A stretch of DNA of 32,000 bases from Polyangiaceae bacterium (lineage in GTDB: Bacteria > Myxococcota_A > Polyangia > Polyangiales > Polyangiaceae). Location: positions 70,633 through 102,632 of the forward strand of contig JBNKUV010000091.1 of NCBI GenBank assembly GCA_050298815.1, read 5' to 3'. Shown here in pieces: positions 863-30,031 of this stretch. Within the stretch, counting starts at the first letter, position 1, and each line of letters opens with the position of its first letter. The position numbers and the translations under genes were made by a program. The notes beneath the pieces are model-generated. The model saw only the letters and a program-made list of their open reading frames with translations. It was not told the origin of the DNA and did no database searches.

Positions 863-984
863 TGCTGAGTCGCCCGGCGCCGGTCACTCCACGACCACGT
901 TGTCGATGTAGATGTCGACGCCGGCTGGGGGGGAGCTCTGCGCGGCATCCCATGCTGCGCGCAAGTCCGCGAGGCGGGCCTGGG

Positions 985-1176
985 GCTGAGGCAGCGGCTG
1001 AGGCGGCTGAGGCTGAGGCTGAGGCTGAGGCAGTGGCTGAGGCTGAGGCAGTGGCTGAGGCTGAGGCTGAGGCGGCACCTGGTGCGGAGGCAGCAGCGGA
1101 GACGGTGGCGGCGCTGCCGGAGGGTTGTGTTCTTGCCCGGGGGCGCACCTTCTGCGCCACCTCTGGCGTGGTTCGT
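985..1176 (+). repeat. Composite repeat copy 1: (GAGGCT)n hexanucleotide tract (985-1073) plus conserved core (1074-1176)
   Basis: The left edge GCTGAGGCAGCGGC is shared with 3859 and 11488. Core 1098-1141 is 44/44 identical to 11613-11656. Core 1074-1176 aligns to 3897-4005 with 7 substitutions and 2 indels (hand alignment). Confidence 0.85.
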
Positions 1177-1242
1177 TAACCTACGGTGGGTCGGTGTCAC
1201 AGAAGCTGCGCTGGGAGGGGCATGAACACAACCCTCCGGCAG
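1114..1242 (+). promoter_or_regulatory. Long imperfect hairpin covering the ribosome-binding region and start codon of the four-helix-bundle gene
   Basis: A perfect 19-bp inverted repeat joins 1114-1132 and 1224-1242. It extends by 5 more bp (1134-1138 with 1218-1222) after one mismatch. A second helix pairs 1143-1154 with 1200-1211 (11/12). ATG 1222-1224 lies inside the stem. Confidence 0.6.
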
Positions 1243-1560
1243 CAACTGCTCAAGCAAGTCATCACCATCATTCAACAAGCACGTCCACTAGTCGCGGATA
1301 TCGAACGCAAAGATCGAGACCTCGGGACTCAACTCAAACGCTCGCTCAATAGTGTGGCACTCAACGTGTCCGAAGCCTTCGGCGGGCGAGCAGGCAATGC
1401 ACGCCTCAGCTTCCGTCGAGCGCTCGGTGAACTGTATGAGTCGCAAGCCGCTCTGCAGCTGGGCGCGGCGTGGGGATACGTGGCAGCTGCAGACGCGCAA
1501 GCGTCGGTGGATGCGCTGAGTGCGCTGGGGGCTCGCCTTTATGGGTTGTCGCAACGGTGA
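1222..1560 (+). CDS. Four-helix-bundle protein (23S rRNA intervening-sequence protein / Avd-like family)
   Basis: LGTQLKRSLNSVALNVSEAFGGRAGNARLSFRRALGELYESQAALQLGAAWGYV matches the family pattern QLxRAxxSIxxNIAEGxGR...F...A.GSL.E....L.....GY. About 112 aa. GGGAGGGG lies just upstream of ATG 1222. The track ORF starts at GTG 1186. Confidence 0.75.
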   Translation: MNTTLRQQLLKQVITIIQQARPLVADIERKDRDLGTQLKRSLNSVALNVSEAFGGRAGNARLSFRRALGELYESQAALQLGAAWGYVAAADAQASVDALSALGARLYGLSQR

Positions 1561-1877
1561 GGGGCGAGAAGCTGTGAGCTTTCTATGCTGGCGTTCGCGG
1601 TTCGGGTCTTGCTGGAGGCGCTCCCCGCTCCGTCCAGGCGGCTGCTGCGTCCGCTCTGAATGGACTGAGGCCTGGTCGCTATTCCTGCCACCGGCGCTCG
1701 AACCGCCGCCTGCCGCCATTGTCTCACCAAGCGACGCGGCACGTGTCGCCAGCTCACACAGCGCAAACCCGCGTCGCGCTGTGGCGGTCTGGAAACAAAC
1801 GAACACCCCGGGGGAGTCCGCCGGCTGCGGGTTGGGAACGAGTTGACCGGCTCGGTTGCCGAGGCTACATTGCGTTG

Positions 1878-3491
1878 ATGCCGAGAGAGTGCAGGGGGCG
1901 GCTCGCAGCCTTCGGATGTGGGGTCTTGGTCGCTTGCTCGAGTGAGTCCGGGGAAAGCGTGCAGACCGGGGGCGAGCACGATTTCGAAACGTTCAACGTC
2001 GACCGCCAAGAAAGGTTCGACGAGTGGAAGCGACTGAACCCCCTAGAGGCCATCGTCGATCCCAGCGTCGACACGCCTGCCGACGCACCCTTTGCGGCTG
2101 GTCAGCGGCGCAACGTCGGAGATGCCGATACGGCGTACGAGCACCTCTACTACCCCTCGGGTATCGCCATGCCAGGTGACTTGGACGGTGACGGTCTTGG
2201 AGACATCGTGATCTGGGAGTTCGACCCTGATAGCGTGCCCGAAACGCCTGACGCTGACGAGACAGGGATCTCGCCTGCCCTCGGCAGAGCACTGATCCAT
2301 GTGATCTACGGCGATCCGGAACTGGGCGAGAACCTGCTAGCACCAGACGCTACGTTCACGAGCCCCTACGTGGACACCCTACGGAGTGCTGTGAGCAGTA
2401 CTAGCAAGAGTGGGTCGCGAGGCAGTGACCTGCTGGTTGGGGTGGGAACCGGTGGCTGCTGGCAAGGTCATGTGTACTCGATTCCTGGGGGTAAACGGTA
2501 CGCGGGTCACAGTGACATTCGCGACGTCGGCGCCTTGATTCGCGAAACGACAGATTGCACCGGGTTCGGTCTCGTCAGTGGCCTCGGGGATATCGACGGT
2601 GACGGATACGAAGACTTTGCCATCGGCGCCCCCGAAGCGACCAACGCCGAAGACGAGGCAGCCATGGGGCGTGTGTACCTCTACTACGGCGCTGAGGTTG
2701 TAGGTGACCGACGCAGCGAGGCCGATGCGGCGGGTTACTTCTTCAATGCTAGCGCCCCCTGGGGCAGCGCCCACGCGGCGGGTGACGTCAACGGGGATGG
2801 ACTCATGGACTTCGTGCTGGGCAGCGAAGTCCGCAGTTTGCATGAGACCTGGAGTGTGAGTAGACGCGATGAAGCTTGGTTGGTGCTCGGGCAGCGGGTT
2901 CCCTTTGAGGGCGCTATCGATGTCACGACCGTCGGAACGCGACTCCCCGGCAAGGGCGCCATCGGCTTGGGCGACCTAGACGAGGACACGTTCAGTGAGC
3001 TCGGCATGCTCCTGCAGGATGAGCAAGCGGTTGGCGCCGGAATCTTCGCTGGCCGCGATGATTGGCAGAACGCCGACCCGGCGCGCGACCTCACCTGGGT
3101 CGAGTCTCCGCAGACATCGAGGCAAAACCCCACGCTGCTGGCCGCTGGGGACGCGAATGGCGACGGGTTGCTCGACGTCTTGTACGCTGACCCTACTTAC
3201 GGCACCGAAGCTGATTGCGAAGGAGTGGGCGCCGTTTACCTGCTACCAGGCCCGTTCGACCTCACGCGGACAGAGCTTTCGCTGGATGAAGGGATCGCAT
3301 TCCTCGGACAGCGTTGGCGCCCTGAACATGACCTCGAGGACAACTGCGAGGAGAGGAGGGACCACGTCGGAGTGCTTCTCGCCGCGGGTAGCGACGTGAA
3401 CGGCGACGGTATGGACGACTTTCTGCTGACTGCGCCGGGTGGACTTCGGCAGGGCGTGACGCACCTTTGGCTCGGGCGTCCAACGCAATGA
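1878..3491 (+). CDS. FG-GAP / integrin-alpha-like repeat lipoprotein (beta-propeller)
   Basis: Repeated Ca-binding DxDGDGxxD motifs: DLDGDGLGD, DIDGDGYED, DVNGDGLMD, DANGDGLLD, DVNGDGMDD. N-terminus MPRECRGRLAAFGCGVLVAC has a lipobox LVAC. ATG at 1878. Confidence 0.8.
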   Translation: MPRECRGRLAAFGCGVLVACSSESGESVQTGGEHDFETFNVDRQERFDEWKRLNPLEAIVDPSVDTPADAPFAAGQRRNVGDADTAYEHLYYPSGIAMPGDLDGDGLGDIVIWEFDPDSVPETPDADETGISPALGRALIHVIYGDPELGENLLAPDATFTSPYVDTLRSAVSSTSKSGSRGSDLLVGVGTGGCWQGHVYSIPGGKRYAGHSDIRDVGALIRETTDCTGFGLVSGLGDIDGDGYEDFAIGAPEATNAEDEAAMGRVYLYYGAEVVGDRRSEADAAGYFFNASAPWGSAHAAGDVNGDGLMDFVLGSEVRSLHETWSVSRRDEAWLVLGQRVPFEGAIDVTTVGTRLPGKGAIGLGDLDEDTFSELGMLLQDEQAVGAGIFAGRDDWQNADPARDLTWVESPQTSRQNPTLLAAGDANGDGLLDVLYADPTYGTEADCEGVGAVYLLPGPFDLTRTELSLDEGIAFLGQRWRPEHDLEDNCEERRDHVGVLLAAGSDVNGDGMDDFLLTAPGGLRQGVTHLWLGRPTQ

Positions 3492-3850
3492 CCCGCTACG
3501 CACCTGGTTGCGCCCCTTCTGCACGACGCGTCCTCTTTGCGGTGGCACTCACGTTAGCAACCAGCTGCGGTGCCCGCACGGACCTCCCGAACGCCTCCGC
3601 CACGCTCGCTCCTGGAGAGCCTGAGCCCGAGTCGCCCAGCCCACCCGCAAGCGATGGGGTGACAGGAGCCGGCGCTTCTTCCGGACCGACTACCGAAGAC
3701 CTCGCGGACCCTGCGAACGACGAAACGCTGAACGTGACCTGCGGCGTCAACACCTGCCGCCGAGACGAGATCTGTTGCAACGAGAGATGTGGTGTGTGCG
3801 CTTTTCCCGGCGAGTGCACCCAGCGTGCGTGTGCCGGGGAACAGCGCTGA
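3488..3850 (+). CDS. Small Cys-rich lipoprotein, translationally coupled to the FG-GAP gene
   Basis: ATGA start/stop overlap at 3488-3491. Signal peptide with lipobox (LATSC). Low-complexity linker. C-terminal CGVNTCRRDEICCNERCGVCAFPGECTQRAC contains 8 Cys. Confidence 0.6.
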   Translation: MTRYAPGCAPSARRVLFAVALTLATSCGARTDLPNASATLAPGEPEPESPSPPASDGVTGAGASSGPTTEDLADPANDETLNVTCGVNTCRRDEICCNERCGVCAFPGECTQRACAGEQR

Positions 3851-3858
3851 GCAAACGG

Positions 3859-4007
3859 GCTGAGGCAGAGGCGGCTCCTGGTGCAGAGGCAGGAGCGGCA
3901 CCTGGTGCGGAGGCAGCAGCGGCGGCGGAGACGGTGGCGGAGCTGCCGGAGCGTTGTGCTCTTGCCCGGGGCGCACCTTCTGTGCCACCGCTGGCATTGT
4001 TCGATAG
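3859..4007 (+). repeat. Composite repeat copy 2: hexamer tract almost absent, core present, ends at 4007
   Basis: Begins 9 nt after the stop of the Cys-rich gene with GCTGAGGCAGAGGCGGCT. Core 3897-4005 matches 1074-1176. It has a 6-nt insertion (CGGCGG) and a 1-nt deletion in the G-run after CCC. Confidence 0.8.
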
Positions 4008-4204
4008 CTCGAGTCTCCCGACTACCGCGCAGAGTCACGCGCAGTCTGAGCGCATCGTCAACCAGGTTCGTACCGATGCCAACCGGAGGTGATGACCTGG
4101 ACGGACGTCTTACTCCAGCTGTTTGGCGATAAGACCGAACCGTCTCGAGGCAGCGCGATACCAGCGGAAGGTCGATGGGGCCGTCAGCGCCCACGCTCAG
4201 CTCG

Positions 4205-4234
4205 CCGTCCGACGGCATATTATCCGTCGGACGG
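4205..4234. terminator. Perfect 11-bp stem hairpin between the repeat copy and the SDR gene 3' end
   Basis: CCGTCCGACGG-catattat-CCGTCGGACGG followed by TTT on the + strand. It lies 11 nt beyond the SDR stop on the - strand. Confidence 0.45.
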
Positions 4235-4245
4235 TTTGGATGGAC

Positions 4246-4977
4246 TCAACCAACTTGGTGATGCATGTCGTGCACCAGTTTCTCCAGTTGGCGGTAACCT
4301 CCCTTCCATACTTCGAACATCTGGCGTCCACCAGGATCGGGAAAGATGTCAGCTTCGCCGGCCGCCAGTCCATCGACGATGTGCTTCGCGGTGTCTTCTG
4401 GCGTCGCCTTGCCCATGGCGAGGGGGCGAGCCATGTCCGTATCGATGGGTCCTGGATTAACGGTGTGCACCCTGATACCCCGCGGTGCCAACTCGATTCG
4501 AATACCCTGCGAGGCGGAGAAAAGGGCGGCTTTGGACGCACTGTAGCCTCCGAGACCCGGGAAGTTGACGAACGCTGCCATGGTCACGACGTTGACGATC
4601 GTCGCCTCCGGCTTGCCTTCGAGCACGGGGATGAATGCCCGCATCATGTCGAGAGTCCCGTAGTAGTTGGTACGCATGTCCCGCTCGAACAGTTCTGGCT
4701 CTCGGCCCAGCAGGCTCGTGAATGCAGCCACGCCGGCGTTGTTCACCAACACCGAGACGTCGCGGGCGGCCTCGGCCGCGGCAGCGACCTGAGCGGAGTC
4801 GGTGATGTCGAGCTGCAGCGGGACGACCCGCGGGTCGTCGAAAGCGCGCAACGTTTCTAGCTTGCGCGCCGTTGCGTACACTTTCGCCGCGCCCCGATTC
4901 AAGAATTCGGTAACGAGGGCTCGGCCGATGCCGCGGTTGGAGCCAGTGACCACCACTGTTTTGTTCTCGATCTGCAT
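4246..4977 (-). CDS. SDR-family (short-chain dehydrogenase/reductase) oxidoreductase
   Basis: TGSNRGIGRA (TGxxxGxG cofactor motif), NNAG, YSASK (YxxxK catalytic). Start taken at MQIENK. An upstream in-frame ATG at 5004 is possible. Confidence 0.85.
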   Translation of the reverse strand: MQIENKTVVVTGSNRGIGRALVTEFLNRGAAKVYATARKLETLRAFDDPRVVPLQLDITDSAQVAAAAEAARDVSVLVNNAGVAAFTSLLGREPELFERDMRTNYYGTLDMMRAFIPVLEGKPEATIVNVVTMAAFVNFPGLGGYSASKAALFSASQGIRIELAPRGIRVHTVNPGPIDTDMARPLAMGKATPEDTAKHIVDGLAAGEADIFPDPGGRQMFEVWKGGYRQLEKLVHDMHHQVG

Positions 4978-5072
4978 GAGTTTGCCTTTCTGAGAGGGAG
5001 GCACTACGCCTCCGACCCGTTAGGTCTAGGATGTGCAAGAGAGCTCCGCTCTATGCATTTTTCCTGGATTGA

Positions 5073-5088
5073 TGTGCGTATTTGCACA
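5073..5088. promoter_or_regulatory. Dyad TGTGC-N6-GCACA in the SDR/LysR divergent intergenic region, candidate LysR-type operator
   Basis: Perfect 5-bp arms, AT-rich centre, 12 nt upstream of the LysR ATG. Assigned by position only. Confidence 0.3.
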
Positions 5089-5099
5089 ATGCTTCCCGC

Positions 5100-5966
5100 A
5101 TGAATTGGGATGACATGCGGGTATTTTTGGCGGTGTGTCAGACGGGTTCGCTCAGCGCGGCCGGCGCAAGCTTGGACATGAATCACACCACCGTCGGGCG
5201 CCGAATCGCAGCCCTCGAAGACGTGCTCGATACCAGGCTGTTCGACCGAAGTCGTGGCGGCTATTCGATGACCCAAGCCGCCGAAGAAATCTTCGGTCGT
5301 GCTCGTCTGATGGAAGAGCAAACTCAGGCCATATTGCGCGAGAACGTCGGAAGAGACCGGGAGCTCCGGGGTAGCCTCGTTCTCACCGTACCGTCGGACT
5401 TTGCGGACAACGTGCTGGTCCCACACCTGGGAAAATTTCTGCGCCGTTATCCTGGCATCGAGTTGGAGCTATCGACGAGCCTGAACCTCGCAAACCTCGA
5501 CGCACGTGACGCCGATCTGGCGTTGCGGGTTACCAAGGCGCCACCAGACCATCTGGTAGGCCGTCGCGTGTACCCCTTGTGCCTGGGTGTGTACGGTAGT
5601 CGGAAGTATCTCGACAAGAACGGACCCAAGGAACTGATCTTGCATCGCGGTGAGCGCAAGCCTCCCAAATGGACCCAAGCATTCCCGCACGCGAAGCTCT
5701 GCTGCCGCATCGATAGCGTGGCATCCCAGCATCGCGCCGTGCGAGCGGGGCTCGGCATTTCGCGTCTACCTTGCTTCATCGGCGACGGCGACTCTTCCCT
5801 CCTACGCTTGCCCGTCGAAGTTTACACCGATTGGGGGATCTGGGTTCTCCACCACGCCGATCTCCGCGCCACTGCGCGTGTCCGCGCATGCCGCGACTTC
5901 CTGTACGAGGTACTCGAGCAGCAGCGTTCCCTGCTGTTGGGTGAAAACTCTCGGTACTTCGAGTGA
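5100..5966 (+). CDS. LysR-family transcriptional regulator
   Basis: N-terminal wHTH MNWDDMRVFLAVCQTGSLSAAGASLDMNHTTVGRRIAALE. About 290 aa. Divergent from the SDR gene, the classic LTTR arrangement. Confidence 0.85.
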   Translation: MNWDDMRVFLAVCQTGSLSAAGASLDMNHTTVGRRIAALEDVLDTRLFDRSRGGYSMTQAAEEIFGRARLMEEQTQAILRENVGRDRELRGSLVLTVPSDFADNVLVPHLGKFLRRYPGIELELSTSLNLANLDARDADLALRVTKAPPDHLVGRRVYPLCLGVYGSRKYLDKNGPKELILHRGERKPPKWTQAFPHAKLCCRIDSVASQHRAVRAGLGISRLPCFIGDGDSSLLRLPVEVYTDWGIWVLHHADLRATARVRACRDFLYEVLEQQRSLLLGENSRYFE

Positions 5967-5972
5967 AGGAGT

Positions 5973-7826
5973 TCACACAATCAGCCGAACACCCCCCAAG
6001 TCTTCGACTCGGTGGCGGAACCGCGCCCCTGGCGTGCCGATGAACATCTGATTCTTGGGCACCCCCAATCGACGCGACAGGGCGTCGATCAATTGAGGCC
6101 CGAAGGTACCTCGCACCGCCACGAAGTCGATGCGGATCTCGGGGTAGAGATGGTCGAGCGCGGTGAGGTGCTCAGCCAATTCCGCTGGCACCTTCTCGTC
6201 GGGCTCGTAGACGTGCACCACCTTCAGACGATTAGTCTGCTCGTTCTGGAGAACGTACTGGACGGCCCGGTTCAAGATCGCCGGCTCGTCCCCTTTGGTA
6301 AAATAGACCATGTCCGTGCTGTTGATGATGTCGATGTGAGCCAAGACCCGTTTGCGCACACGGTCGTTCATGCTCTGCACCTTGTCGGCTATCGAACGCA
6401 TCACGGAGAGCACGACGCGAAGGATGTGCAGACGTAAGAACATCACCGCCACCACAGCGACCACGGCCAAAAAGTAGCCAGCGAATATCTCGACGTTGAC
6501 TGGGTCCATCACGATGTTACCGACCAGACCCAACAGCACGGCAAACAAGGCCACCGACACCGTGGGCCAACCAGCACGGGTATCCCGAGGCAGACGGCCT
6601 CGCCGTGCTTTGAGCAACATGTTTCCGATGGCAAACAGGCTCATCACCGAAAGAAAAGACAGAGTGTAAACCCCTGCCAATGTCTCAATCTGCCCCGCAG
6701 TGATGAACAGAATGGTGACGCATACCAGAAAGAAGGAAAGCAGGATCCAATGATTCGTCCCTCGCCAGCGGTTGGCACGCAAGAAGAACTGAGGGAGGCA
6801 GCGGTCCAGAGCCATCCGACGCATCAGGCCCGTCACGCCGACGAAGCTGGTCAATACGGCGCCGGAGAGCACGAGGACCGCGTCGATGCCGACCCAAAAA
6901 CCCAGCCACTCGTCGAGTGATCGCGTGCCCATCTCCGCGAGCAGGTCCGGAGGAACTTCTTGGATCTCTCCGAGGGGCAGGAGCCCGAGCGAGAGCAAGC
7001 TCATCAGTGGATTGAAGACAGCCACCGCGGCCCACATGTTGGGCAGCGTCTTCGGGAAGACTCCCGGCTTTTGTTCTTCGATGAAGTTCGCTGAGCTTTC
7101 GAAGCCGCTGATGCCGAGCATCGCCGCAGCAAAGCCGAAGAACAGCGCGTGCAAGAATCCGTGCTGACTCGGAAGATGCAGATTCGTGTAGAGCGTCGAA
7201 GGATCGTTGGCGACCGTTACGATCGCTGCCCCCGACAGCACGGTCAGGGTCGCCAAGTGCAGCGTGAAGATGACCAGCGCCACCACTGCGGACTCGCTGA
7301 TACCCAGAGTCGTCAAGGTTGCGAACAGGGCCAGCAACCCTATCGTCGCGGGAAACACCGGCAGGCCCCCGTACAGGTGATGAGCGTAGTGCATCGCCTC
7401 GCCCGCAGAGATCACGGCGGTAGCGACGTACGACAACAGCGTCAGGCACGCCGCTGCGGCCGCAACGCGCTTGTTGGTCGTGTTGAGCAGGACCGTGTAG
7501 CAGCCGCCGTTGAGCGGCAATGCACTGCCCACTTCGGCGTAGACCTTTCGGAACAAGTACAACACGCCCGCAACAATGAGCAGAACGAGAGGCGCGAGAG
7601 CGCCTGCGTGGGCGGCACAAAGCGCCGAGACGTAGAGACAGCTGGACGTGATATCGTTGCCGCAAATGGCCGTCGCTCGCCAGGTGCCGAGAGTGCTCTT
7701 GGTCGGCTGATCGAGACGAGCAATGGGCCCATCAACGGGTTGAAGGTCCGTGATGTTCGTCGCCTTGCCCCAACCCGCGAACTCCCAGGACTCGGGAACG
7801 TCTGTCGCATCGGGCTGAATCGTCAT
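5973..7826 (-). CDS. APC-superfamily amino acid/polyamine permease with about 190-aa cytoplasmic C-terminal domain
   Basis: Multiple hydrophobic TM segments. Motif NDITSSCLYV...GSALPLNGGCYTVLLNT. GGAG lies 5 nt upstream of ATG 7826. The track ORF starts further upstream at 7970. Confidence 0.8.
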   Translation of the reverse strand: MTIQPDATDVPESWEFAGWGKATNITDLQPVDGPIARLDQPTKSTLGTWRATAICGNDITSSCLYVSALCAAHAGALAPLVLLIVAGVLYLFRKVYAEVGSALPLNGGCYTVLLNTTNKRVAAAAACLTLLSYVATAVISAGEAMHYAHHLYGGLPVFPATIGLLALFATLTTLGISESAVVALVIFTLHLATLTVLSGAAIVTVANDPSTLYTNLHLPSQHGFLHALFFGFAAAMLGISGFESSANFIEEQKPGVFPKTLPNMWAAVAVFNPLMSLLSLGLLPLGEIQEVPPDLLAEMGTRSLDEWLGFWVGIDAVLVLSGAVLTSFVGVTGLMRRMALDRCLPQFFLRANRWRGTNHWILLSFFLVCVTILFITAGQIETLAGVYTLSFLSVMSLFAIGNMLLKARRGRLPRDTRAGWPTVSVALFAVLLGLVGNIVMDPVNVEIFAGYFLAVVAVVAVMFLRLHILRVVLSVMRSIADKVQSMNDRVRKRVLAHIDIINSTDMVYFTKGDEPAILNRAVQYVLQNEQTNRLKVVHVYEPDEKVPAELAEHLTALDHLYPEIRIDFVAVRGTFGPQLIDALSRRLGVPKNQMFIGTPGARFRHRVEDLGGVRLIV

Positions 7827-8136
7827 TCGTGCTCCAAAAAAGTTGCGCCCCGCAGTTCGAAGCGCCACTGAAGTAGTCGGACAGCCTCGAAGGCTCGTCA
7901 AGTCGAAGCACTGGATAACCTCCCCGAACACCAAGCAGCCCCGGGACACGGGTCCAAGCGCTTCGCCCACGGACGGGCATCGAGTGACTAGCTCCCACGC
8001 ACGGACCTGCCGTTCGCGCTATCCGACCTACGGCCCGCTGACGGCTCGGCCGAGGTGCCCGGCCACCCTCGGGCGCTACCTGCGACCGCTAGACGCTGAG
8101 CTCGCCGTTGCCCGGACGTACTGGTAGGCTGGCGCC

Positions 8137-9375
8137 ATGCGAGTCAAGGCCATCGTGTTGGGGATTGGTCTCACCGCGTTGGTGGGCGGCGGGGCAGCTA
8201 TTGCGCTGCGCCCCAAGGTCGTTAGGGTGGAGAGTCCGCGGCAAGGGCCAATACAGCAAACGGTGGTCGTCAGTGGGCAGGTGATGCCGCCCGCCGAGAT
8301 CCGCCTGGCGTCGTTCGTCTCGAGCACGGCGCGCAAGCTCTACGTTCGCGAGGGCGACAGTGTCGACAGTGGTCAGCTGTTACTCGAGTTGGACGAACAG
8401 GATGCAGAAGCGCAAGTGGCGCAGGCCGAGGCAGCGTTGGCATCGGCTCGCGCCGGGCGGAGTGAGCTCAGCCGTCTGAGTGCACCGCAGGCAGAAACCG
8501 AGTTGAGTCGAGCCGAGACCAACCTGGCTGAGGCACGCCGCCGCCTCGCGCGCGAAAAGCACCTGTTCGAGGCGGGGGTGACCCCTCAGGAGATCTACGA
8601 GGAGGTGAAGACGGCGGAGGAGTTGGCGGAGGCCCAGCGGCAGGCAGCGCTGTTGCAGGTGCGGGCTGCTTCTGCTGGGGGGAGTCAAGCGGTGCGCGCG
8701 CAGGCCAACGTGGCGCTCGCCGAGGCTCAGCTCGGGGTCGCCCGAGTGCAACTGGCGCGGCACGAAGTGCGCGCTCCAGCTTCCGGCGTCATCATCTCGC
8801 GTGAAGTGGAACCGGGGGACGCGGTGCTGAGCGGGAGCCCGCTGTTCGTGCTTTCTGCGACTGGCGCAACGCGGCTGCGCGTCGAGCCGGATGAACGCAA
8901 TCTCGCCTTGCTGCGCGTCGGGCAGCGCGCCGTGGCCTCTGCCGAAGCGTTTCCCGACGATCAGTTCGATGCTGAGGTGCAGTACATCGCGCCATCGGTG
9001 GATCCCGCGCGCGGAACTGTGGAGGTGCGCTTGTTGGTCGATGAGCCACCGGAGTTCTTGCGCCAGAACATGACCGTGTCGGTGGAGATCACGGTCGCGA
9101 AGAAGGAGGCGGCGCTGCTCGTTTCCCGTTCGAGCGTGGTTGCCGAAAAGCTCGAGCCCCACGTGCTGACGCTGGGAGCGGGTCGGGTAAACAAGACGCC
9201 TGTCGAGCTGGGGCTGGTTGGCGATAGGGTAGTCGAGGTCGTCTCGGGCCTCGACGCGAGCGATCGCGTCATCACGGATGCCTCGCCCGACGTTCAACCG
9301 GGGGATAGGGCGCGTGCCGAGCAAGTGGTGGCGTCGACGCACGCGAATGGGGAGTCGCGTACTGAGGGCCTATGA
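8137..9375 (+). CDS. HlyD/MFP-family periplasmic adaptor subunit (MacA-like)
   Basis: N-terminal TM segment, lipoyl-like VREGDSVDSGQLLLELD, and a long Ala/Glu/Gln/Arg-rich stretch (about residues 85-215) consistent with an alpha-helical hairpin. First gene of a three-gene operon with overlapping stops and starts. Confidence 0.8.
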   Translation: MRVKAIVLGIGLTALVGGGAAIALRPKVVRVESPRQGPIQQTVVVSGQVMPPAEIRLASFVSSTARKLYVREGDSVDSGQLLLELDEQDAEAQVAQAEAALASARAGRSELSRLSAPQAETELSRAETNLAEARRRLAREKHLFEAGVTPQEIYEEVKTAEELAEAQRQAALLQVRAASAGGSQAVRAQANVALAEAQLGVARVQLARHEVRAPASGVIISREVEPGDAVLSGSPLFVLSATGATRLRVEPDERNLALLRVGQRAVASAEAFPDDQFDAEVQYIAPSVDPARGTVEVRLLVDEPPEFLRQNMTVSVEITVAKKEAALLVSRSSVVAEKLEPHVLTLGAGRVNKTPVELGLVGDRVVEVVSGLDASDRVITDASPDVQPGDRARAEQVVASTHANGESRTEGL

Positions 9376-10595
9376 TGCGGCGTCTCGGGTTGGCCTGGTT
9401 TCTGGCGCTGCAGCTACTCCGCGAGCACCGTGCCCAGGCGTTGCTGACCGTGTCCGCAGTGGCGGTTGGGGTCTCCGTCATGATTTTCCTCTCAGCGCTG
9501 ATCACCGGACTGCAGGAGAGCCTGATTCGACAGACCCTCGGCAGCCAAGCTCACATCACGGTGGCACCTCCCGAGGAAAAGACGCGACCTCAACTCGAGG
9601 GTATGGGCATCATTCGCCGTGTCGAGGAGCCGCAGCAGCGTTTTCTCTCGATCAGTGATTGGCAGAACGTCGCCGCGCGCCTGAGCGATGAGCCTGGTGT
9701 CCTGGAAGTTGCGCCGGGCGTCACGGGCAACGCTTCGGCCCTGCGTGGCAATGCCGAACGCTCGGTGGTGCTGATGGGGTTCGACCCTTCTGAGCTCGAT
9801 GGTGTGATCGAGGTCAGCGAACGTTTGGTGCAAGGACAGTTCGAGCTCAGCGGGGCCGAGGTGGTCTTGGGTGTTCGCTTGGCGCACGACTTGGGGGTGG
9901 GCTTGGGCGACAAGTTGCGCCTGCGAACGCAGACTGCTGGCGAGATGCTCTTCACCATCGTTGGGATCTTCGACTTGGGTAGCCAGCAAGTGAACCAACG
10001 TTGGGTACTGTTGTCGCGGCGTAGTGCTCAGAGCCTGGCGGGGCTCCCCGGCGGCGTGAACCTCATGTTGATAGAAGTTCGGAAGATATTCGAGGCGGAA
10101 GAGATCGCGCAGCGCATGGTCGCGAGCACTGGGCTCGTGGTGGATTCGTGGATGAAGACCAACGAGCGCCTGCTGGTGGGACTGCGCTCGCAGTCGAGCT
10201 CCAGCTACACCATTCAGTTCTTCGTCTTTCTTGCCGTCGCGATCGGCATCGCCGCGATCTTGGTGGTCTCCGTGGTACAACGCACACGGGAGATCGGCAT
10301 CTTGCGCGCGATGGGTATCGAGCGCTCGACGGTCTTCTCGCTATTCGTGGTGCAGGGAGGGCTGATCGGGCTCGTGGGGGCCCTTGTCGGAGCGGTGCTG
10401 GGGACGGGGTTATCGAGCCTGTTCGCCCACGTCGCGCAGGCGCCGGATGGGTCACCGACGTTTCCAATGGCTCTGTCGCCGGAGCTCTACCTCGTCGCCA
10501 TCACCTTGGCGACGGTGACGGGTATGCTGGCGGCGGCGCTACCGGCGCGCTGGGCAGCGCGGTTGGACCCGGTGGAAGCGATTCGTCATGCCTGA
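9372..10595 (+). CDS. ABC transporter permease, FtsX/MacB/LolCE type
   Basis: ATGA overlap with the adaptor gene. TM1 plus a large periplasmic domain plus the C-terminal FtsX-like block REIGILRAMGIERSTVFSLFVVQGGLIGLVG. Confidence 0.8.
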   Translation: MMRRLGLAWFLALQLLREHRAQALLTVSAVAVGVSVMIFLSALITGLQESLIRQTLGSQAHITVAPPEEKTRPQLEGMGIIRRVEEPQQRFLSISDWQNVAARLSDEPGVLEVAPGVTGNASALRGNAERSVVLMGFDPSELDGVIEVSERLVQGQFELSGAEVVLGVRLAHDLGVGLGDKLRLRTQTAGEMLFTIVGIFDLGSQQVNQRWVLLSRRSAQSLAGLPGGVNLMLIEVRKIFEAEEIAQRMVASTGLVVDSWMKTNERLLVGLRSQSSSSYTIQFFVFLAVAIGIAAILVVSVVQRTREIGILRAMGIERSTVFSLFVVQGGLIGLVGALVGAVLGTGLSSLFAHVAQAPDGSPTFPMALSPELYLVAITLATVTGMLAAALPARWAARLDPVEAIRHA

Positions 10596-11316
10596 GACTA
10601 CGCCCCTGCTCGAGCTGCGCGAGCTACGCAAGAGCTACGGCGAGAAGGTTGTCACGGAGGTATTGCACGGCATCGACCTGCAGGTGTCCGCTGGCGACTT
10701 CACTGCCATCATGGGTCCCTCTGGATCGGGCAAGAGCACACTCCTCAACCAGATCGGTCTCCTCGATCGGCCGACTTCCGGCAGTGTCCTCGTGCACGGC
10801 AAGGAGACGCAGCATCTGAACGACGAGGAATTGACTGCGCTGCGCGGTCGCACTCTCGGCTTCGTCTTTCAGTTCCATCATCTGATCAATGCGCTCAGCG
10901 TGCGCGACAATCTGATGATGCCGCTGTGGCTCAGCGACGGGCACGACCCGCGACTGACCGCCGCCGAGCGTGTGCAGAAGGCTCTGGAGCAGGTAGGGCT
11001 TGCGGACAAGGCGCACGCCCACCCGGACGAGCTTTCCGGAGGCCAACAACAGCGAATCGCCGTTGCCCGCGCGCTGATTCACCGCCCGGACCTGGTTCTG
11101 GCAGACGAGCCCACCGGCAATCTCGATTCGAAAACCGCCGATGAGGTATTCGAGCTTCTGCGCCAGTTCAACGAAACGCTGGGCACGACATTTCTGATCG
11201 TCACCCACGATCCTCGTATGGCAGAACGCTGCGACAGCGTCATCACCATCGAGGATGGCGTGATTGCTGGGGTCACTCCGCGCCGAAGCGACGGGACTTC
11301 GCCGGATAGCGAATGA
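10588..11316 (+). CDS. ABC transporter ATP-binding protein (MacB/LolD type)
   Basis: Walker [10 protein letters not shown], signature LSGGQQQR, Walker [14 protein letters not shown]-loop VTHD. 8-nt overlap with the permease gene. Confidence 0.9.
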
Positions 11317-11487
11317 GAGTCCCCGTTCGCAGCGGTGAAGACGATGAACCGACCGGGTTGTTCTTCGGGGAAGAGCTCGACCCGGGCGTGGGCGCCGCTG
11401 TCGTCGACTAGTCTAGAACCTGGAACTGGAAGCGGTACTCTTGGGTAAACGCATCGACGATGGGCTCTGAGCGCACGTGGGCGTCGA

Positions 11488-11656
11488 GCTGAGGCAGCGG
11501 CGGCTGAGGCTGAGGCTGAGGCTGAGGCGGCGGCTGAGGCTGAGGCTGAGGCAGCGGCGGCGGCTGAGGCTGAGGCTGAGGCTGAGGCTGAGGCTGAGGC
11601 TGAGGCTGAGACGGAGACGGTGGCGGCGCTGCCGGAGGGTTGTGTTCTTGCCCGGG
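11488..11656 (+). repeat. Composite repeat copy 3: longest (GAGGCT)n tract plus 44-nt core, ending exactly at CCCGGG
   Basis: Same left edge GCTGAGGCAGCGGCGGCT. 11613-11656 is identical to 1098-1141. Homology to copies 1 and 2 stops at 11656. Confidence 0.85.
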
Positions 11657-11829
11657 AAAATCACTACGGCTCCCGCTCAGAGCGCGGCACTTGGGGTGCG
11701 GCGTTGATGTACAGCCTGCTCGACTCCGCTGAGTTGGCTGGCGTGAACCCGAAGGTGTACTTGTCCGCTGCGGTAGACGCTGCCCTGAGCGGCCGGACCA
11801 TTCCGTTGCCTCACGAACTCGCGGTGTAG
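11657..11829 (+). pseudogene. IS66-family transposase C-terminal fragment
   Basis: [44 protein letters not shown] matches the conserved IS66 tail GRKNWLFAGSxxGGxxAAxxYSLIxTAKLNGxxPxxYL (recalled consensus). The N-terminal approximately 450 aa of a transposase are absent. The frame is continuous with the repeat core. Confidence 0.6.
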
Positions 11830-12026: not shown

Positions 12027-14921
12027 CTACTCGGGTTGCGCTCTGAAAACGGCGAACAACAGCCGTGCGCCCGTTTCTGTGTCGGTCTTGGACTGAACGC
12101 TCAGCTTGACCGGCACCTTCGTGCCATCCGCGCGCACCAGTTCCCGTTTGACGGTAAACGGGACATCCAAGCCTCCCTTGATGAGATCCATCCCTTCCTT
12201 CATTCTCTCACGAGCTTCCGGAGCGAACACTGCTAGGGCTGAGTCCAGCGTCACTCGCCCTGCCTCCATCCCGAGCAGCCTCCTGGCTCCCGACGAGAAG
12301 CGGACTTGTTCGTTAGTGAAATCCAGGATCGCATAGCCAAAGCCGGCGATCTCCTCTGCCATATCTTGCGCACGTTCGAGCCGCCTGAGCTCGGAACTGG
12401 CGCGGGTTAGCTCGGACACCTCTTGCAGGGTGATAATAACTCCGCGTGGATCATCCGCAGAGGCTTGGAACACTCGCATCACAATGCTCCACCAAGTTCC
12501 GTCATCACCTAGGATCTTGCGCGTCGTGCGCTGCCCGCTTGCCAGCACTTGTTGTGCATCCGTGGCCAGCGTCGGATAAGCTGCCTGTACGGCGATCTCT
12601 TTCAACGGACGCCCTAGGTCCTCACGCCGCATTGGTAGGAGGTGGGTAGAGGCCTCGTTGTACCGGCGAATGCAAAGCGTATCATCGAGGAAGACAACGC
12701 CAGCAGCCATGACGCGTAGCAAGTTCTCCAGATCGGCGTTCAGCTCTTCTAGCTCACCAATTTTCTGCTGATATTCCGTATTCACCGTATAGAGCTCTTC
12801 ATTGACGCTCTGGAGTTCTTCATTGGTGCTCTGAAGTTCTTCGTTGGAAACCGTCAGTTCCTCGTTGGTTGCCTGCAGTTCCTCATTGGTCGCCTCTAGG
12901 TCCTGAACTGCCGAGTGCAGGTGCTCGCGCGCAATCGTTAGCTCATCCTCCAGCTGGTGGAGACGCTGACGCGTCGCTACGTCAATGTCGACATTGCCTA
13001 CGATGTCCGACGGTCGCCGCTCCTGCTGCTCAAAAAAGACGAGGAGAGTCGCCGGAAGGCCGCTGGTCTTCAGGAGAGGAGTGATGCGTACCGTGTAGGC
13101 CAGCTTCTCATCCTTCTGCTGGAAGTACACGTCAGGCACGCACACTTCTTCATCCTGACTCAGCGCATTGCGCGCCGCCGAATTGAGCAATACGGCGACG
13201 GCTTGGGGCACCATTTTCAAAAGGTTGACCGAGACACGGCCCTGCGGAAATCGCAGGAACCGGGACACGTCGCCAAGCGATTGGACAATATCAAGGTTGG
13301 TGTCCACGGCAAGAGTGGGCGGACACTGGCGTGAAATGATGGCGCCATACAGCAGCTCGTTCGTTCGAGATGGATTTCTAGGGAAGAGCTCTTCCCCACG
13401 GCTCATGCGGCTAGGGGTTACCATTAAGGCGGTAGAAGGCGGCGGGGTTCCTCTAGCAATGTAGGTGTTGGTTCGCTTGTCCAACGTTTGAAAACTGGCG
13501 TTGGCGTCCCCGACTGATTCACTGAGCCCTAGTAGCATGATTCCGCCGTCCACCAAGGAGTGGCGAAACCGCGCAAATGCGCGTTGCTGAGCTTCATGGG
13601 AGAAGTAGATCAGCATGTTCCGACAGCTGATCAGGTTTAGCTGAGTGAACGGAGGATCCGAAAGGATGTCGTGCTGGGCGAACGTGATGCTATCGCGCAG
13701 ACTCCGTCGCACAACGTAGTGATCGCCATGGGCTTCGAGATAGCGATCGCGCAGACGCTGGGGAATCATCTCGCATGCCGCCACGGGATAAGCGGCTGCC
13801 CGCGCAAAGGTTAGAGAGTCTTGGCGTGCGTCAGTCGCAAAGAGCCGGTAGCTGACAGGTCGGTTTGACGCACGGAGGACTTCCTGCAGTAGGATGGCAA
13901 GTGTGTAGGCTTCTTCCCCTGTTGCGCACCCTGAGCACCAAGCTCGGATTGTTGTGTGGTCCGGGGCAGCCGCTAGTATTTCTGGGATTACCGACTGCTT
14001 CAGGTTTTGCCAGACTTCCGGGTCACGAAAGAATTGAGTCACACCGATCAACATCTCTCGCGAAAGTAGCTCCAGCTCGTTGGGCTCGTCCGCCAGGTGC
14101 TTCGCGTACTCCTCGACCGAGGAAAGTCCAAGCAGGGATGTGCGTCGCTGGATTCGACGCGTTACGGTCCCTCGCTTGTACAACCCGAAGTCGATCTTGG
14201 TGTGATGATGAACAGACCTGATGATCTCGGCAACCGCCTCTTGTTCTGTCCGATCCTTCTGAAGCGCTGGCGAGCGAACGATTGGGTGTTGCGCGTAGCT
14301 AGCCAAGCTCTGGCAGAGCGCGGCGGGACCTCCCACTTGATCGGCCAGGTTCGTTGTGATCACGCTTCGTGGCATGCCGTCAAACTTGGCTGTTCCCGGC
14401 TCTTGCGCGAGCACCAGTCCGCCGGCCTCCTTGATTTGGCGACAACCGTGGGTGCCATCTGTGCCAGTCCCGCTGAGAATCACGCCTGCGCACAATTCAC
14501 GCTGTTCCCGGGCGAGGGACTCAAGAAAGACATTGATGGGTAAGACAACGCGGCTTGGATCTCGCTCATCCAAGACGAACTTGCCGTCCTCCACCAGAAG
14601 TGTGCGCTTTGGCGGAAGCAGGTAGATGGCGTCCGGCTGCGGTGTTTGCCCTTGGGTGACGTCCGTCACCTCCAGCGGCGTGTGACGAGAGAGTAGCTCT
14701 ACCATCATGCTCTTGAAGTCGGGGGAGAGGTGCTGCACCACGACGTACGCGATACCCGCCCCCTTCTTGGCCGCACTGAAGAACTCCGTGAGCGCCTCCA
14801 AACCGCCAGCGGACGCGCCAATGCCCGCGACGAAGTAAGGGAGTACCGGCTCGCGGCCAAAGTCTTCAGACGCTAGCGTTGAGGCGGGTGCGGATTCATC
14901 CGTTGGTGGACTGTCGGTCAT
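12027..14921 (-). CDS. CheB methylesterase - CheR methyltransferase - coiled coil - tandem PAS fusion protein (no kinase domain)
   Basis: CheB-type GIGASAGGLEAL, VVQHLSPDF and GTGTDG. CheR SAM motif WCSGCATGEEAYT. Heptad run ATNEELQATNEELTVSNEELQSTNEELQSVNEEL. C-terminal PAS-like region. ATGA overlap with the upstream RR gene at 14918-14921. Confidence 0.85.
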   Translation of the reverse strand: MTDSPPTDESAPASTLASEDFGREPVLPYFVAGIGASAGGLEALTEFFSAAKKGAGIAYVVVQHLSPDFKSMMVELLSRHTPLEVTDVTQGQTPQPDAIYLLPPKRTLLVEDGKFVLDERDPSRVVLPINVFLESLAREQRELCAGVILSGTGTDGTHGCRQIKEAGGLVLAQEPGTAKFDGMPRSVITTNLADQVGGPAALCQSLASYAQHPIVRSPALQKDRTEQEAVAEIIRSVHHHTKIDFGLYKRGTVTRRIQRRTSLLGLSSVEEYAKHLADEPNELELLSREMLIGVTQFFRDPEVWQNLKQSVIPEILAAAPDHTTIRAWCSGCATGEEAYTLAILLQEVLRASNRPVSYRLFATDARQDSLTFARAAAYPVAACEMIPQRLRDRYLEAHGDHYVVRRSLRDSITFAQHDILSDPPFTQLNLISCRNMLIYFSHEAQQRAFARFRHSLVDGGIMLLGLSESVGDANASFQTLDKRTNTYIARGTPPPSTALMVTPSRMSRGEELFPRNPSRTNELLYGAIISRQCPPTLAVDTNLDIVQSLGDVSRFLRFPQGRVSVNLLKMVPQAVAVLLNSAARNALSQDEEVCVPDVYFQQKDEKLAYTVRITPLLKTSGLPATLLVFFEQQERRPSDIVGNVDIDVATRQRLHQLEDELTIAREHLHSAVQDLEATNEELQATNEELTVSNEELQSTNEELQSVNEELYTVNTEYQQKIGELEELNADLENLLRVMAAGVVFLDDTLCIRRYNEASTHLLPMRREDLGRPLKEIAVQAAYPTLATDAQQVLASGQRTTRKILGDDGTWWSIVMRVFQASADDPRGVIITLQEVSELTRASSELRRLERAQDMAEEIAGFGYAILDFTNEQVRFSSGARRLLGMEAGRVTLDSALAVFAPEARERMKEGMDLIKGGLDVPFTVKRELVRADGTKVPVKLSVQSKTDTETGARLLFAVFRAQPE

Positions 14922-15355
14922 GTTGGATCCAAGGCAGGGTCGGCGGGTGACACGAGCTTCAACCAGAAAGCCTCTACGCATACAATCGTCTGGCTAAACG
15001 CATGCAGATCCATCGGCTTGACGACATGGGCGTTGGCACCCAGCTCATGGCTTAGGAGCCGGTCGTCCGCGTTGGAGGAGCCGGTGAGTATCACTATAGA
15101 AAGGAGATGCAACTTCGGCGTGGAACGGATCTGCCTGAGTAGCTCGTGCCCAGACATGTCGGGCAACGTGAGATCGAGGAGCACCAAAGAAGGACCTGGC
15201 CCCCCCCATTCCGTAAGCATCCGATAGGCTTGAGTGGCAGTGGACGCGGTGGTCACCTTGGCCTCGGGATTGGCACTGAGGAAAGCCTCCCGCACCAGCA
15301 TTGCGTCCGCGTCGTTGTCCTCCACCAGAAGCACCGTGAATCTATCTCCGCCCAT
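14918..15355 (-). CDS. Single-domain response regulator (CheY-like receiver)
   Basis: LLVEDNDADA, acceptor region LVLLDLTLPDMSG, conserved T (ILTGS) and K (VVKP). Confidence 0.9.
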   Translation of the reverse strand: MGGDRFTVLLVEDNDADAMLVREAFLSANPEAKVTTASTATQAYRMLTEWGGPGPSLVLLDLTLPDMSGHELLRQIRSTPKLHLLSIVILTGSSNADDRLLSHELGANAHVVKPMDLHAFSQTIVCVEAFWLKLVSPADPALDPT

Positions 15356-28516: not shown

Positions 28517-29206
28517 ATGAAGAAGGAAGAACGCAAGTCAGACGTGCCAGTTGGGAGTGCCACACGCGCTGGGGGGTTGATGTTGCTGCTGGGTTTGGCG
28601 GCAGGTGCGGCTTCGTTCTCGCTTTGGGGAGCTCGGGAACAGAGCGCACAAGTTGGCACGGCCACTGAGCCCCAGGGGAACGTGGACGCTCGACCATCGG
28701 TTGCTTCAGCTTTGGCCGCCACTCCCGCGGCATCTTCCGGGCTGCGCGCCGTGGCATCAGCCACCGCGATGAGGCTTCCTGCAGGCAATCCGCCGGACTC
28801 TTCCAAGGCCGGCGCAACGTCTGGGAGCAACTCTGCCCTATATCCGGATGCGGTGAGCGCCGAGGAAGGCGTTGCTCATCCCACTCCCACTGAACGTGAT
28901 GCCATCTACAAACGCGTGACCCAGCACATGCGGCAGCAATTCCTGCCTTTGGCGGAGCAGTGCTATGAGGGGCTACTGGAGCGCGACGATCAGGCGAGCG
29001 GTGTTGTGGAAATGGAGCTCACCGTGGTGGGGGATGACGGTGTTGGCGGGATAGTAGAGCGGGCGCGGCTGGGGGATGGGACTACGTTCACGGATGCAGA
29101 CTTCAGGACTTGCATCACGGAATCCTCTTTCACTACGGAGTTTGATCCCCCCGAAGGTCTGGACGGCAAGGTGACGATTGTCTATCCGCTGAGATTCGCG
29201 CCGTAG
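28517..29206 (+). CDS. Membrane-anchored protein with AgmX/PglI-type (TonB-C-like) C-terminal domain
   Basis: TM GGLMLLLGLAAGAASFSLWG, Ala/Ser/Pro-rich linker, then C-terminal CYEGLLERDDQASGVVEMELTVVGDDGVGG...DADFRTCITES...FDPPEGLDGKVTIVYPLRF. This is typical of the myxobacterial tail domain. Confidence 0.6.
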   Translation: MKKEERKSDVPVGSATRAGGLMLLLGLAAGAASFSLWGAREQSAQVGTATEPQGNVDARPSVASALAATPAASSGLRAVASATAMRLPAGNPPDSSKAGATSGSNSALYPDAVSAEEGVAHPTPTERDAIYKRVTQHMRQQFLPLAEQCYEGLLERDDQASGVVEMELTVVGDDGVGGIVERARLGDGTTFTDADFRTCITESSFTTEFDPPEGLDGKVTIVYPLRFAP

Positions 29207-29416
29207 CGTGGGTGTGTGCTCGTGGAAACGATGAGCACCCCTTTGCCGTTGTAAGCGTGTCGAGCCGCGCGAGAACCCGCTGTACTACCGCCCGCCGCTG
29301 ATCGACGGCAATGGCTCGGCGATCGATTGGCGGACCTACAGCTTGCGCGTTGCTGTTGAGCGTCGATTGCAGTGTGCCGTCCGCCGCACAGCCCTGCGAG
29401 AACTTCGTCCATCGCT

Positions 29417-29527: not shown

Positions 29528-29610
29528 GGGGGGGCGAGTGGCAAGCAGCCTGGAGTGTGCACTGGCTCCGGCACCGGCAGAACGCTGGCCCACGAGCGGG
29601 GCCGAGGTTG

Positions 29611-30021: not shown

Positions 30022-30031
30022 AGTGATTGTC

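Follow-up and report, generated by a model that had tools for sequence, protein, structure and literature searches.

In Coxiella, the intervening sequence (IVS) of the 23S rRNA carries an S23p open reading frame (ORF) inside a 28-bp terminal stem that is cut by RNase III, and the element is regarded as selfish, with no known function (PMC4990558). The same family of four-helix-bundle (4HB) proteins, PF05635, includes Avd and is the commonest family beside the reverse transcriptases of diversity-generating retroelements (DGRs) (PMC10053308), and related 4HB genes have been reported wedged between cas genes (PMC3936711). Here we analyze a stretch of 32,000 nucleotides from a Polyangiaceae bacterium (contig JBNKUV010000091.1; hereafter the window), in which an intact 4HB gene is accompanied by partial repeats. 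These repeats are copies and wrecks of a small multi-copy Polyangiaceae cassette that consists of a simple-sequence tract, a hairpin lying over a start codon, and the 4HB ORF; the window holds one intact member and three wrecks. An earlier note on this DNA had proposed that the repeats are not ordinary intergenic DNA but a decaying multi-copy cassette with a 4HB gene and a length-variable 5' tract, and related loci and a sister metagenome-assembled genome (MAG) bear this out. The cassette can be regarded as a free-standing element related to selfish 4HB genes and to those rRNA intervening sequences that bear an ORF, the protein family itself being already known.

The layout of tract, hairpin and 112-amino-acid 4HB ORF recurs in 33 loci from Polyangiaceae MAGs and metagenomes, with protein identities of 42-90%. 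In its general form, the hairpin measures about 131-133 nt and is composed of an outer stem of 22-23 bp over the start codon and the first seven codons, an inner stem of about 20 bp in which the sequence and three mismatches are conserved, and an apical loop that varies. In the intact copy, a repeat finder reports positions 1113-1138 as the reverse complement (25/26) of 1218-1243, a segment that runs from the last bases ahead of the ATG through the start codon and 19 nucleotides further, and the inner stem, GGCGCACCTTCTGCGCCACC against GGTGTCACAGAAGCTGCGC, is imperfect. The region 1085-1270 folds as one long hairpin (-103.5 kcal/mol, z = -5.9 against dinucleotide shuffles). The conserved core described earlier is not an element terminus; it forms the left half of this hairpin, and the right half coincides with the region in which translation of the 4HB gene starts. 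No family in Rfam 15 matches the hairpin, the only matches being to generic miRNA-precursor hairpins at 30 bits against a gathering score of 168, and a scan of the whole window returned zero families at gathering score.

Like the IVS of Leptospira, Coxiella and Xanthomonas 23S rRNA, the cassette ties an ORF of the same protein family to a near-perfect stem of more than 20 bp, and in three loci (L013, L081 and L125) the tracts that flank the gene are reverse complements of each other, resembling IVS terminal repeats. Unlike an IVS, it is located between protein-coding genes and not in helix 9, 25 or 45 of the 23S rRNA, and no rRNA or tRNA is present in the window. Its stem is placed upstream and uses the first 22 nucleotides of the ORF as one arm instead of bracketing the ORF; in the window copy both arms are on the 5' side (1113-1135 and 1221-1243), and no complement to them was found past the 4HB stop codon. 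The cassette further differs in adding a simple-sequence tract and in being multi-copy in the 3' untranslated regions (UTRs) of mRNAs. A second comparison can be made with the fold-back inhibition of IS10 and IS50 and with hok-type mRNAs, in which a cis-encoded segment pairs with the initiation region of a selfish gene, so that transcripts entering from outside are not translated. A cis-encoded segment paired with the translation-initiation region is what we would propose for the cassette as well, but its stem is much longer and compound, its structure is kept over deep divergence, it is coupled to a microsatellite, and it has no transposase.

Conservation of the pairing was evaluated on 25 aligned hairpins against a structure of 43 named pairs, 23 in the outer and 20 in the inner helix. 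Paired cells make up 85%, against 28-45% when the partners are slid by one to three columns. Change on both sides is seen in 32 of the 43 pairs, with 170 compensatory cells, and none of 500 shuffles matched the observed values for paired cells, two-sided pairs and cells, or covariation score. Related copies differ from each other in the coding arm 42 times, and in 34 of these cases the upstream arm has the complementary change. The mirrored changes fall mostly on nucleotides 9, 12, 15, 18 and 21 of the coding sequence, which are third codon positions; an example from a single genome is CTC CGG with the arm CCGGAG in the window copy and CTG CGA with the arm TCGCAG in locus L003, the second full cassette of that genome. 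Because the gene is under purifying selection, synonymous divergence is high and the changes are mirrored, the upstream arm can be said to track the synonymous drift of the 4HB gene. The conserved nucleic-acid structure suspected in the earlier note is substantiated by strong folding together with covariation, and the comparative evidence for a functional structure appears unusually clean.

A profile-guided scan of one genome per species returned 41 loci, nearly all in MAGs of Polyangiaceae/Myxococcales, with two to four or more per MAG and with N-terminal-only or C-terminal-only fragments among them. Dozens of 112-amino-acid homologues were found at 46-90% identity, many of them on contigs shorter than 2 kb, as expected of a repeat at which assemblies break. 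The upstream arm matches the reverse complement of coding nucleotides 1-22 at 15-22 of 22 positions in 27 of 31 loci inspected, in addition to the window. In these 27 loci the offset of the arm is nearly constant (81-98 nt, mostly 86-90), and the hairpins measure 125-142 nt, mostly 130-134, with folding energies of -53 to -99 kcal/mol. The match is kept despite divergent protein N-termini (MNTTLRQ, MTTTLRQ, MHTPLRQ, MHHSKSS, MRNQLHQ and MHSLISN). The more distant 4HB genes L036, L037 and L039 have different upstream hairpins, with the start codon outside. A search of the representative genomes with the exact core pattern gave no matches, since the source MAG is not a species representative.

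Metagenomes were scanned with a DNA pattern that fixed the inner-arm bases and the ATG and nothing else, and 120 stretches were obtained. All eight in which the outer arm matched at 17 or more of 22 positions carry a 4HB ORF (112 amino acids in seven, 104 in one) and an upstream tract, and the other 112 stretches, with outer-arm matches of 15/22 or fewer, have neither a 4HB ORF nor a tract. The hairpin was therefore never found with a different gene. This runs counter to the earlier description of the 4HB protein as cargo: the hairpin is built from the first 22 nucleotides of the gene and co-evolves with it. [quoted passage not shown] Membership in DGRs, integrons, IS/MITE families, 23S rRNA IVS or any Rfam family was considered and rejected, the defining features of each being absent.

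The 4HB protein is basic and scores 37.8 bits against TIGR02436 (cut-off 24) and 33.8 bits, exactly at the cut-off, against PF05635, which settles by profile search an assignment first made from sequence alone. A precomputed PF05635 domain is present in 59 of 59 full-length homologues. The AlphaFold monomer (mean pLDDT 94.4) has helices at residues 5-30, 32-54, 57-83 and 89-111. Its top Foldseek matches are XCC0516 (2GSC) and BT_0352 (2RLD) with TM scores of 0.81-0.87, followed by Avd, both alone (4DWL) and in the DGR reverse-transcriptase complex (8UB7), with TM scores of about 0.8-0.85; a sequence profile also retrieved 2GSC (E = 4e-7). The link to 23S rRNA IVS ORFs and to DGR Avd drawn in the earlier note is supported by this structure search and by the literature (PMC10053308, PMC4990558). 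Ratios of dN to dS between 0.04 and 0.25, at dS values from 0.75 to above 2, indicate that the protein is under purifying selection, with a dS of 0.75 separating the window copy from L003 in the same genome.

The tract is GC-rich and fast-evolving, measures 60-450 nt, and has a repeat unit that differs by lineage; units include GAGGCT, GGCAGC, GGCGTCAGC, GGGGCAGGGGCTGCT, GGCAAC, GAGCCTGGGCCT, GGTGACCGTGAC and GGATTCGGAATC. Among the first 25 loci, 23 have it 5' of the hairpin, as do all eight new ones (31/33). Over a region of 415 nt, the sister MAG differs from the window by one GAGGCT unit, being one unit shorter, and by two single-nucleotide polymorphisms, all within the tract, so that the comparison between MAGs does reveal a difference in length. 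A second assembly has the same sequence at copy 2, and its contig breaks off within the tract of copy 3. Some loci also carry tract sequence after the 4HB stop codon, as a direct repeat in L003, L007 and L008 and inverted in L013, L081 and L125; in L003 the unit is bracketed by a direct repeat of 68 nt, which is partly tract and whose two copies begin at the stop codon of the upstream gene and at that of the 4HB gene, respectively. Judged from these comparisons, the tract is unstable in length and involved in duplications.

Several candidate roles for the tract were rejected. As coding sequence, its Ala-rich, PQ and other frames are out of constant phase with the ATG and are not consistently open on either strand, and a minus-strand ORF from a pseudo-start stops after eight codons in several loci; the minus-strand PQ frame of copy 1, taken as a real gene ending in VDIYIDNVVVE, is kept in no other locus. 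A specific RNA structure of the tract did not hold either (z = -0.2 for the plus strand in the window). An unstructured, C-rich, rut-like RNA from the minus strand would suit the window type (z = +2.3 and +3.2), but 20 tracts range from +3.2 to -4.5, and as a general rule it also fails on GC skew, which is positive in only about two thirds of the loci. Within the 32 kb there are no further intergenic simple-sequence tracts. The sole other tandem repeat (12796-12904, 21-nt period) sits inside a 984-amino-acid CheB-CheR-PAS fusion gene (12027-14981, minus strand), in a stretch with weak matches to coiled-coil families.

Features of the cassette copies in the window. Positions are those of the 32,000-nucleotide stretch.
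Feature	Position	Strand	Description
Copy 1, tract	980-1073	+	(GAGGCT)n simple sequence, about 16 units (Tandem Repeats Finder, period 6)
Copy 1, spacer	1074-1112	+	G-rich, from tract to hairpin; also in copy 2; last 16 nt (1097-1112) in copy 3
Copy 1, hairpin	1113-1243	+	131 nt; arms complementary at 25/26
Left outer arm	1113-1135	+	Hairpin of copy 1
Internal loop	1136-1141	+	CCCGGG; hairpin of copy 1
Left inner arm	1142-1161	+	GGCGCACCTTCTGCGCCACC; hairpin of copy 1
Apical loop	1162-1192	+	Variable; hairpin of copy 1
Right inner arm	1193-1211	+	GGTGTCACAGAAGCTGCGC; hairpin of copy 1
G-run	1212-1220	+	Hairpin of copy 1
Right outer arm	1221-1243	+	Last base before start codon, ATG, codons 2-8
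4HB gene, intact	1222-1560	+	112 amino acids, four-helix-bundle, PF05635/TIGR02436 (Avd/S23p-like)
Copy 2, wreck	3859-4007	+	Short tract, spacer, left outer arm (about 3942-3964), left inner arm (3970-3989)
Copy 3, wreck	11488-11656	+	Tract of about 18 units, left outer arm (11628-11650), CCCGGG
IS66-family transposase, C-terminal fragment	11657-11829	+	Orphan, about 55 amino acids; NF033517, E 6e-6; outside the cassette
Fourth locus	29414-29531	+	Last ~37 codons of the 4HB gene, stop codon, 4 nt downstream

The three same-strand elements of the window share the start GCTGAGGCAG(C/A)GGCGG. Every number given for them in the earlier note that could be checked holds: segments 1098-1141 and 11613-11656 of copies 1 and 3 are identical, within an exact match of 45 nt (1097-1141 and 11612-11656, the last 45 nt of copy 3); segment 1074-1176 differs from 3897-4005 by seven substitutions, one 6-nt and one 1-nt indel; and the hexamer tracts are found by Tandem Repeats Finder as period-6 arrays at 980-1073 (16 copies) and 11502-11610 (18 copies), the tract of copy 2 (3862-3923) giving only a 24-nt period repeated 2.6 times. 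The fourth locus does keep only the 3' end of the gene, with 95% identity over 118 nt to 1447-1564, and copies 1-3 do follow plus-strand genes, which encode a P460-domain protein, a lipoprotein-like ORF and an ABC ATPase, respectively. The 20-mer of the inner arm occurs twice in the window against a chance expectation of 0.02; read on the minus strand, the left inner arm is TGGCGCAGAAGGTGC in copy 1 (1142-1161) and TGGCACAGAAGGTGC in copy 2 (3970-3989).

The copies are truncated, as described before, but the pattern is not a systematic one-sided nesting. Copy 3 does stop exactly at the CCCGGG motif (11656) because the IS66 transposase fragment begins at the next base, and copy 2 ends near the hairpin apex, with no 4HB gene after it. 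In other genomes the breaks are again different: L026 has lost an internal stretch reaching from the right inner arm to residue 57, L040 joins the tract directly to residue 57, L038 and L044 are C-terminal halves from residue 58, and L032 is a fragment of residues 12-61 located 8 nt past the host stop codon. In L027, 87 nt of hairpin interior were lost and the loop has collapsed to GTGTGCATGCACAC, leaving a short perfect palindrome across the ATG (around 1470-1510); its ORF has an insertion, it is probably a pseudogene, and its position on a contig labelled Phycisphaerales could be due to a binning error or to transfer. Since the fragments have no common preserved end, the truncations look like ordinary deletions. 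Units can be clustered as well, with tandem units in L007 and, in the long-read MAG locus L011, two convergent units that each have tracts on both sides; the second of these (2500-3336, own hairpin 3001-3130) is of another subtype and lies within 1.2 kb of the first.

The window was located in contig JBNKWN010000026.1 of MAG GCA_050299775.1. Short-read assemblies of the same organism end at the repeats, a Logan contig spanning approximately 1455-11526 and the contig of the sister MAG ending near 4062. The public gene call places a 75-amino-acid ORF (AEAEAE...) over the hexamer tract and left hairpin arm (952-1179, plus strand; 2731-2958 in L001), which is probably spurious, given that its frame is not kept in other loci. 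The cassettes break short-read Polyangiaceae assemblies, and gene callers put spurious ORFs on the tract.

Three other genes of the window have features of their own. Upstream of copy 1, part of the cytochrome P460-domain gene is duplicated in tandem (16-315 and 463-762), as two 300-nt segments with 73% identity spaced by 447 nt, which gives the protein two P460-like modules. The 3' fragment at the fourth locus adjoins a nucleotidyltransferase-domain ORF (29611-30291, minus strand; NTP_transf_2, E 9e-8), which may be part of a toxin-antitoxin-like pair. The ORF at 28517-29206 (plus strand) has an AgmX/PglI C-terminal domain, a tail of the myxobacterial gliding-motility type, at 36.4 bits, just below the cut-off of 40.

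The fold of the protein raises the question of a retroelement satellite, in which a reverse transcriptase supplied from elsewhere would be recruited by the Avd-like protein, slippage or repeated copying of a short template would have left the tract as its trace, and the hairpin would serve for priming or as a template boundary. Similarity to Avd of the DGR reverse-transcriptase complex in fold, small size and basic character, the frequency of PF05635 beside DGR reverse transcriptases, and a tract that is one-sided and variable in length are consistent with this. However, sequence identity to Avd is only about 14%, a reverse transcriptase is found neither in the window nor in any locus with gene calls, the fragments have no single preserved end, and the differences between copies 1 and 2 are not adenine-specific, just two of the seven involving A. 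As there is no adenine specificity, there is no relation of template repeat to variable repeat, and we consider a retroelement satellite very improbable.

The tract usually starts about 30 nt or less past the stop codon of a co-oriented upstream gene, as in copy 2 of the window and in L003, L004, L006, L010, L011, L018, L023, L026, L073 and L081. From this placement, the cassette appears normally to occupy the 3' UTR of a co-oriented host gene. P460 orthologues in two relatives (63-65% identity) are followed by short intergenic regions without the element, and no junction of filled and empty sites is definable from them, these relatives having no downstream synteny. Both full cassettes of the window's genome are located about 1.8 kb or less from a gene pair for an extracytoplasmic function (ECF) sigma factor and an NrsF anti-sigma factor (L001 1-1234; L003 3334-4735); Polyangiaceae encode very many ECF sigma factors, so that this proximity, seen in two of two cases, may be due to chance.

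The unit appears to be duplicative and selfish-like, and several observations would speak for its being mobile: genomes carry diverged copies at unrelated loci, three near-identical pieces lie within 32 kb, P460 orthologues have no element beside them, the position after stop codons is stereotyped, and relatives of the gene have been reported between cas genes. The hallmarks of mobility sought on the basis of the earlier note did not materialize. Conserved element ends were not found beyond the tract edge and the stop codon, and the flanks of the window copies share only the tract edge. The internal hairpin is the only inverted repeat, and the 68-nt repeat of L003 is the only flanking direct repeat. 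The 30 ORFs of the window and the gene calls of L001-L004 contain no integrase and no reverse transcriptase, nor, apart from the IS66 fragment beside copy 3, a transposase.

Repetitive extragenic palindromic (REP) sequences, bacterial interspersed mosaic elements (BIMEs) and MITEs are, like the cassette, GC-rich palindromic intergenic repeats that occur in several copies downstream of genes. The cassette is far longer, bears a gene, and has no terminal inverted repeats or target duplications, and its palindrome is copy-specific because it mirrors the coding sequence. The same observations bear on a more conservative explanation, namely that the copies are ordinary vertically inherited paralogues with a regulatory 5' leader, the tract being a neutral microsatellite, the partial copies pseudogenes, and nothing being selfish or mobile. 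Purifying selection on the protein, the age of copies within one genome (dS 0.75 between the window copy and L003) and the lack of mobility genes and target duplications would all be expected. Such paralogues would hardly account for many wrecks together with several copies per genome at unrelated loci, for three recent near-identical fragments in 32 kb, for the absence of the element downstream of P460 orthologues and its fixed position right past host stop codons, for a tract retained in 31 of 33 loci though its sequence is not conserved, or for related 4HB genes between cas genes (PMC3936711). This explanation is therefore rather doubtful in our view.

The reading that we prefer, with a probability of roughly 0.45, is that the hairpin serves as a gate on expression of the 4HB gene from read-through transcripts within a duplicative, selfish-like cassette. 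Read-through from the host gene would transcribe the unit, and the upstream arm would fold onto the initiation region, so that a perfect duplex of over 20 bp would enclose the AUG; translation would be blocked, and/or the duplex would be open to cleavage of the RNase III type, as related intervening sequences of rRNA are. A transcript whose start lies within the hairpin, at the conserved inner arm, would be devoid of the upstream arm and translatable. Because the upstream arm would hide the AUG in read-through RNA, the hairpin would shield a selfish-like gene under tight control from host transcription. Duplication or recombination, with participation of the slippage-prone tract, would give rise to new copies, and copies would decay through deletions that begin in the tract or the hairpin. 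Both the regulatory role and the manner in which copies spread are what we infer from comparing these loci.

A number of observations weigh against a gate of this kind. No promoter of the sigma-70 type is predicted in or near the hairpin, and the G-run is only about 3 nt from the ATG, a poor spacing for a Shine-Dalgarno sequence. Target-site duplications, terminal repeats and a recombinase were not found for the cassette, and no universal property of the tract was demonstrable when frame, skew and RNA structure were compared across loci. G·U pairs are nearly missing (5 of 1074 cells, or 4 G·T/T·G in another tally), and A·C mismatches number 44; this would be atypical for a helix selected as plus-strand RNA, and maintenance at the DNA level or folding of the opposite strand would fit better. 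In addition, of 27 loci, 18 have the more stable fold on the minus strand.

In the mismatches themselves, the left-arm base is almost always C (C·T 51, C·A 34 and C·C 34), and three mismatches of the inner stem are at fixed positions: C·C at columns 39/100 in 20 of 25 loci, C·A at 46/92 in 16, and C·T at 48/90 in 18. Apart from these positions, the first 25 loci have 20 A·C against 4 G·T, an excess that would imply that wobble pairs are tolerated on the minus strand only. Wobble asymmetry is nevertheless at most suggestive of the folding strand, since it points to the minus strand in the 25 loci but the eight new loci have two A·C and two G·T. Arm pairing in quasi-palindromes can be maintained at the DNA level by template switching. 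The strict Watson-Crick pairing fits either such DNA-level maintenance or a need for perfectly duplex RNA, and either strand, as RNA or as DNA, may be the one that folds.

The same patterns are relevant to the alternative that the hairpin acts as DNA, as a single-stranded or cruciform recombination site for a recombinase encoded elsewhere, the unit being a non-autonomous mobile gene cassette. Its logic would be analogous to that of the integron attC, the folded attP of CTX phage or an IS200/IS605 end. Near-strict Watson-Crick pairing with mismatches at fixed positions and a variable apical loop, the excess of A·C over G·T, the tandem and convergent arrays, the placement right after stop codons, and the 68-nt direct repeat flanking the unit of L003 would all suit a DNA site. 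Integron cassettes with attC likewise are compact single-ORF units that occur in arrays, and their palindrome, imperfect and about 60-140 nt long, combines mismatches at fixed places with an apical loop that varies, its structure being kept while its sequence changes. However, genes of the integrase, HUH or Xer type adjoin no locus with gene calls, the base asymmetry disappears in the eight further loci, and clean filled and empty pairs were not found. In contrast to integron cassettes, the stem base has no R'/R'' core sites, such as GTTRRRY, and its columns vary freely as the outer stem is coding sequence; the palindrome is placed upstream and overlaps the ORF start; and only one kind of ORF is carried. 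We consider a DNA site of this kind unlikely, if less so than a set of ordinary paralogues.

The sequence of the inner arms invites a different alternative. Taken as its reverse complement, the left inner arm is TGGC-N8-TGC in 24 of 25 loci, and its GG and GC doublets stand at the -24/-12 core spacing of sigma-54 promoters. The inner arms could then be a palindromic duplication of a sigma-54-type promoter, from which transcription would be directed outward across the tract on the minus strand and, in some copies, also along the plus strand, which would yield a near-leaderless 4HB mRNA; the hairpin would be a by-product of the duplication. The right inner arm has the GC in 25 of 25 loci, though the GG in just 8, and the ATG follows 12-15 nt past this -12 GC. 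On the other hand, the motif, short and rich in GC, matches the consensus at only 7-10 of 12 positions, no activator-binding site or gene for an enhancer-binding protein was identified, and such promoters leave unexplained the 22-nt arm that mirrors the coding sequence together with its synonymous changes. We regard the spacing as a lead and not as a finding, and a sigma-54 origin of the arms as more doubtful than vertical paralogy, although less so than a retroelement satellite.

In addition to the expression gate, we considered a further reading that combines several of these elements: the unit would be a new non-autonomous mobile or self-duplicating cassette, the hairpin the site of an enzyme acting in trans on single-stranded DNA or cDNA, the arms kept by template switching, the Avd-like protein the cassette's own nucleic-acid-binding factor, and the microsatellite an insertion scar or substrate. 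We judge it improbable, to the same degree as a recombination site in DNA. If it is true, it would provide the first functional handle on thousands of free-standing "four helix bundle protein" genes, and a handle on the origin of ORF-bearing rRNA intervening sequences; if the cassette does move through its hairpin, it could represent a new cassette class.

Literature searches on the family names and on myxobacterial repeats turned up no description of an architecture of tract, start-codon hairpin and 3' UTR position. The combination in cis of a microsatellite, a compound hairpin that includes the first 22 nucleotides of a gene, and a position in a host 3' UTR does not seem to have been described previously. 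Proteins of the PF05635/TIGR02436 family are very widespread: their genes are part of rRNA intervening sequences and of DGRs, lie wedged among cas genes, or stand alone in several copies, and their function is known only in DGRs. For this family, the cassettes of the Polyangiaceae offer a cis element that is defined and conserved, follows the first codons of the gene base by base in its evolution, and is directly testable.

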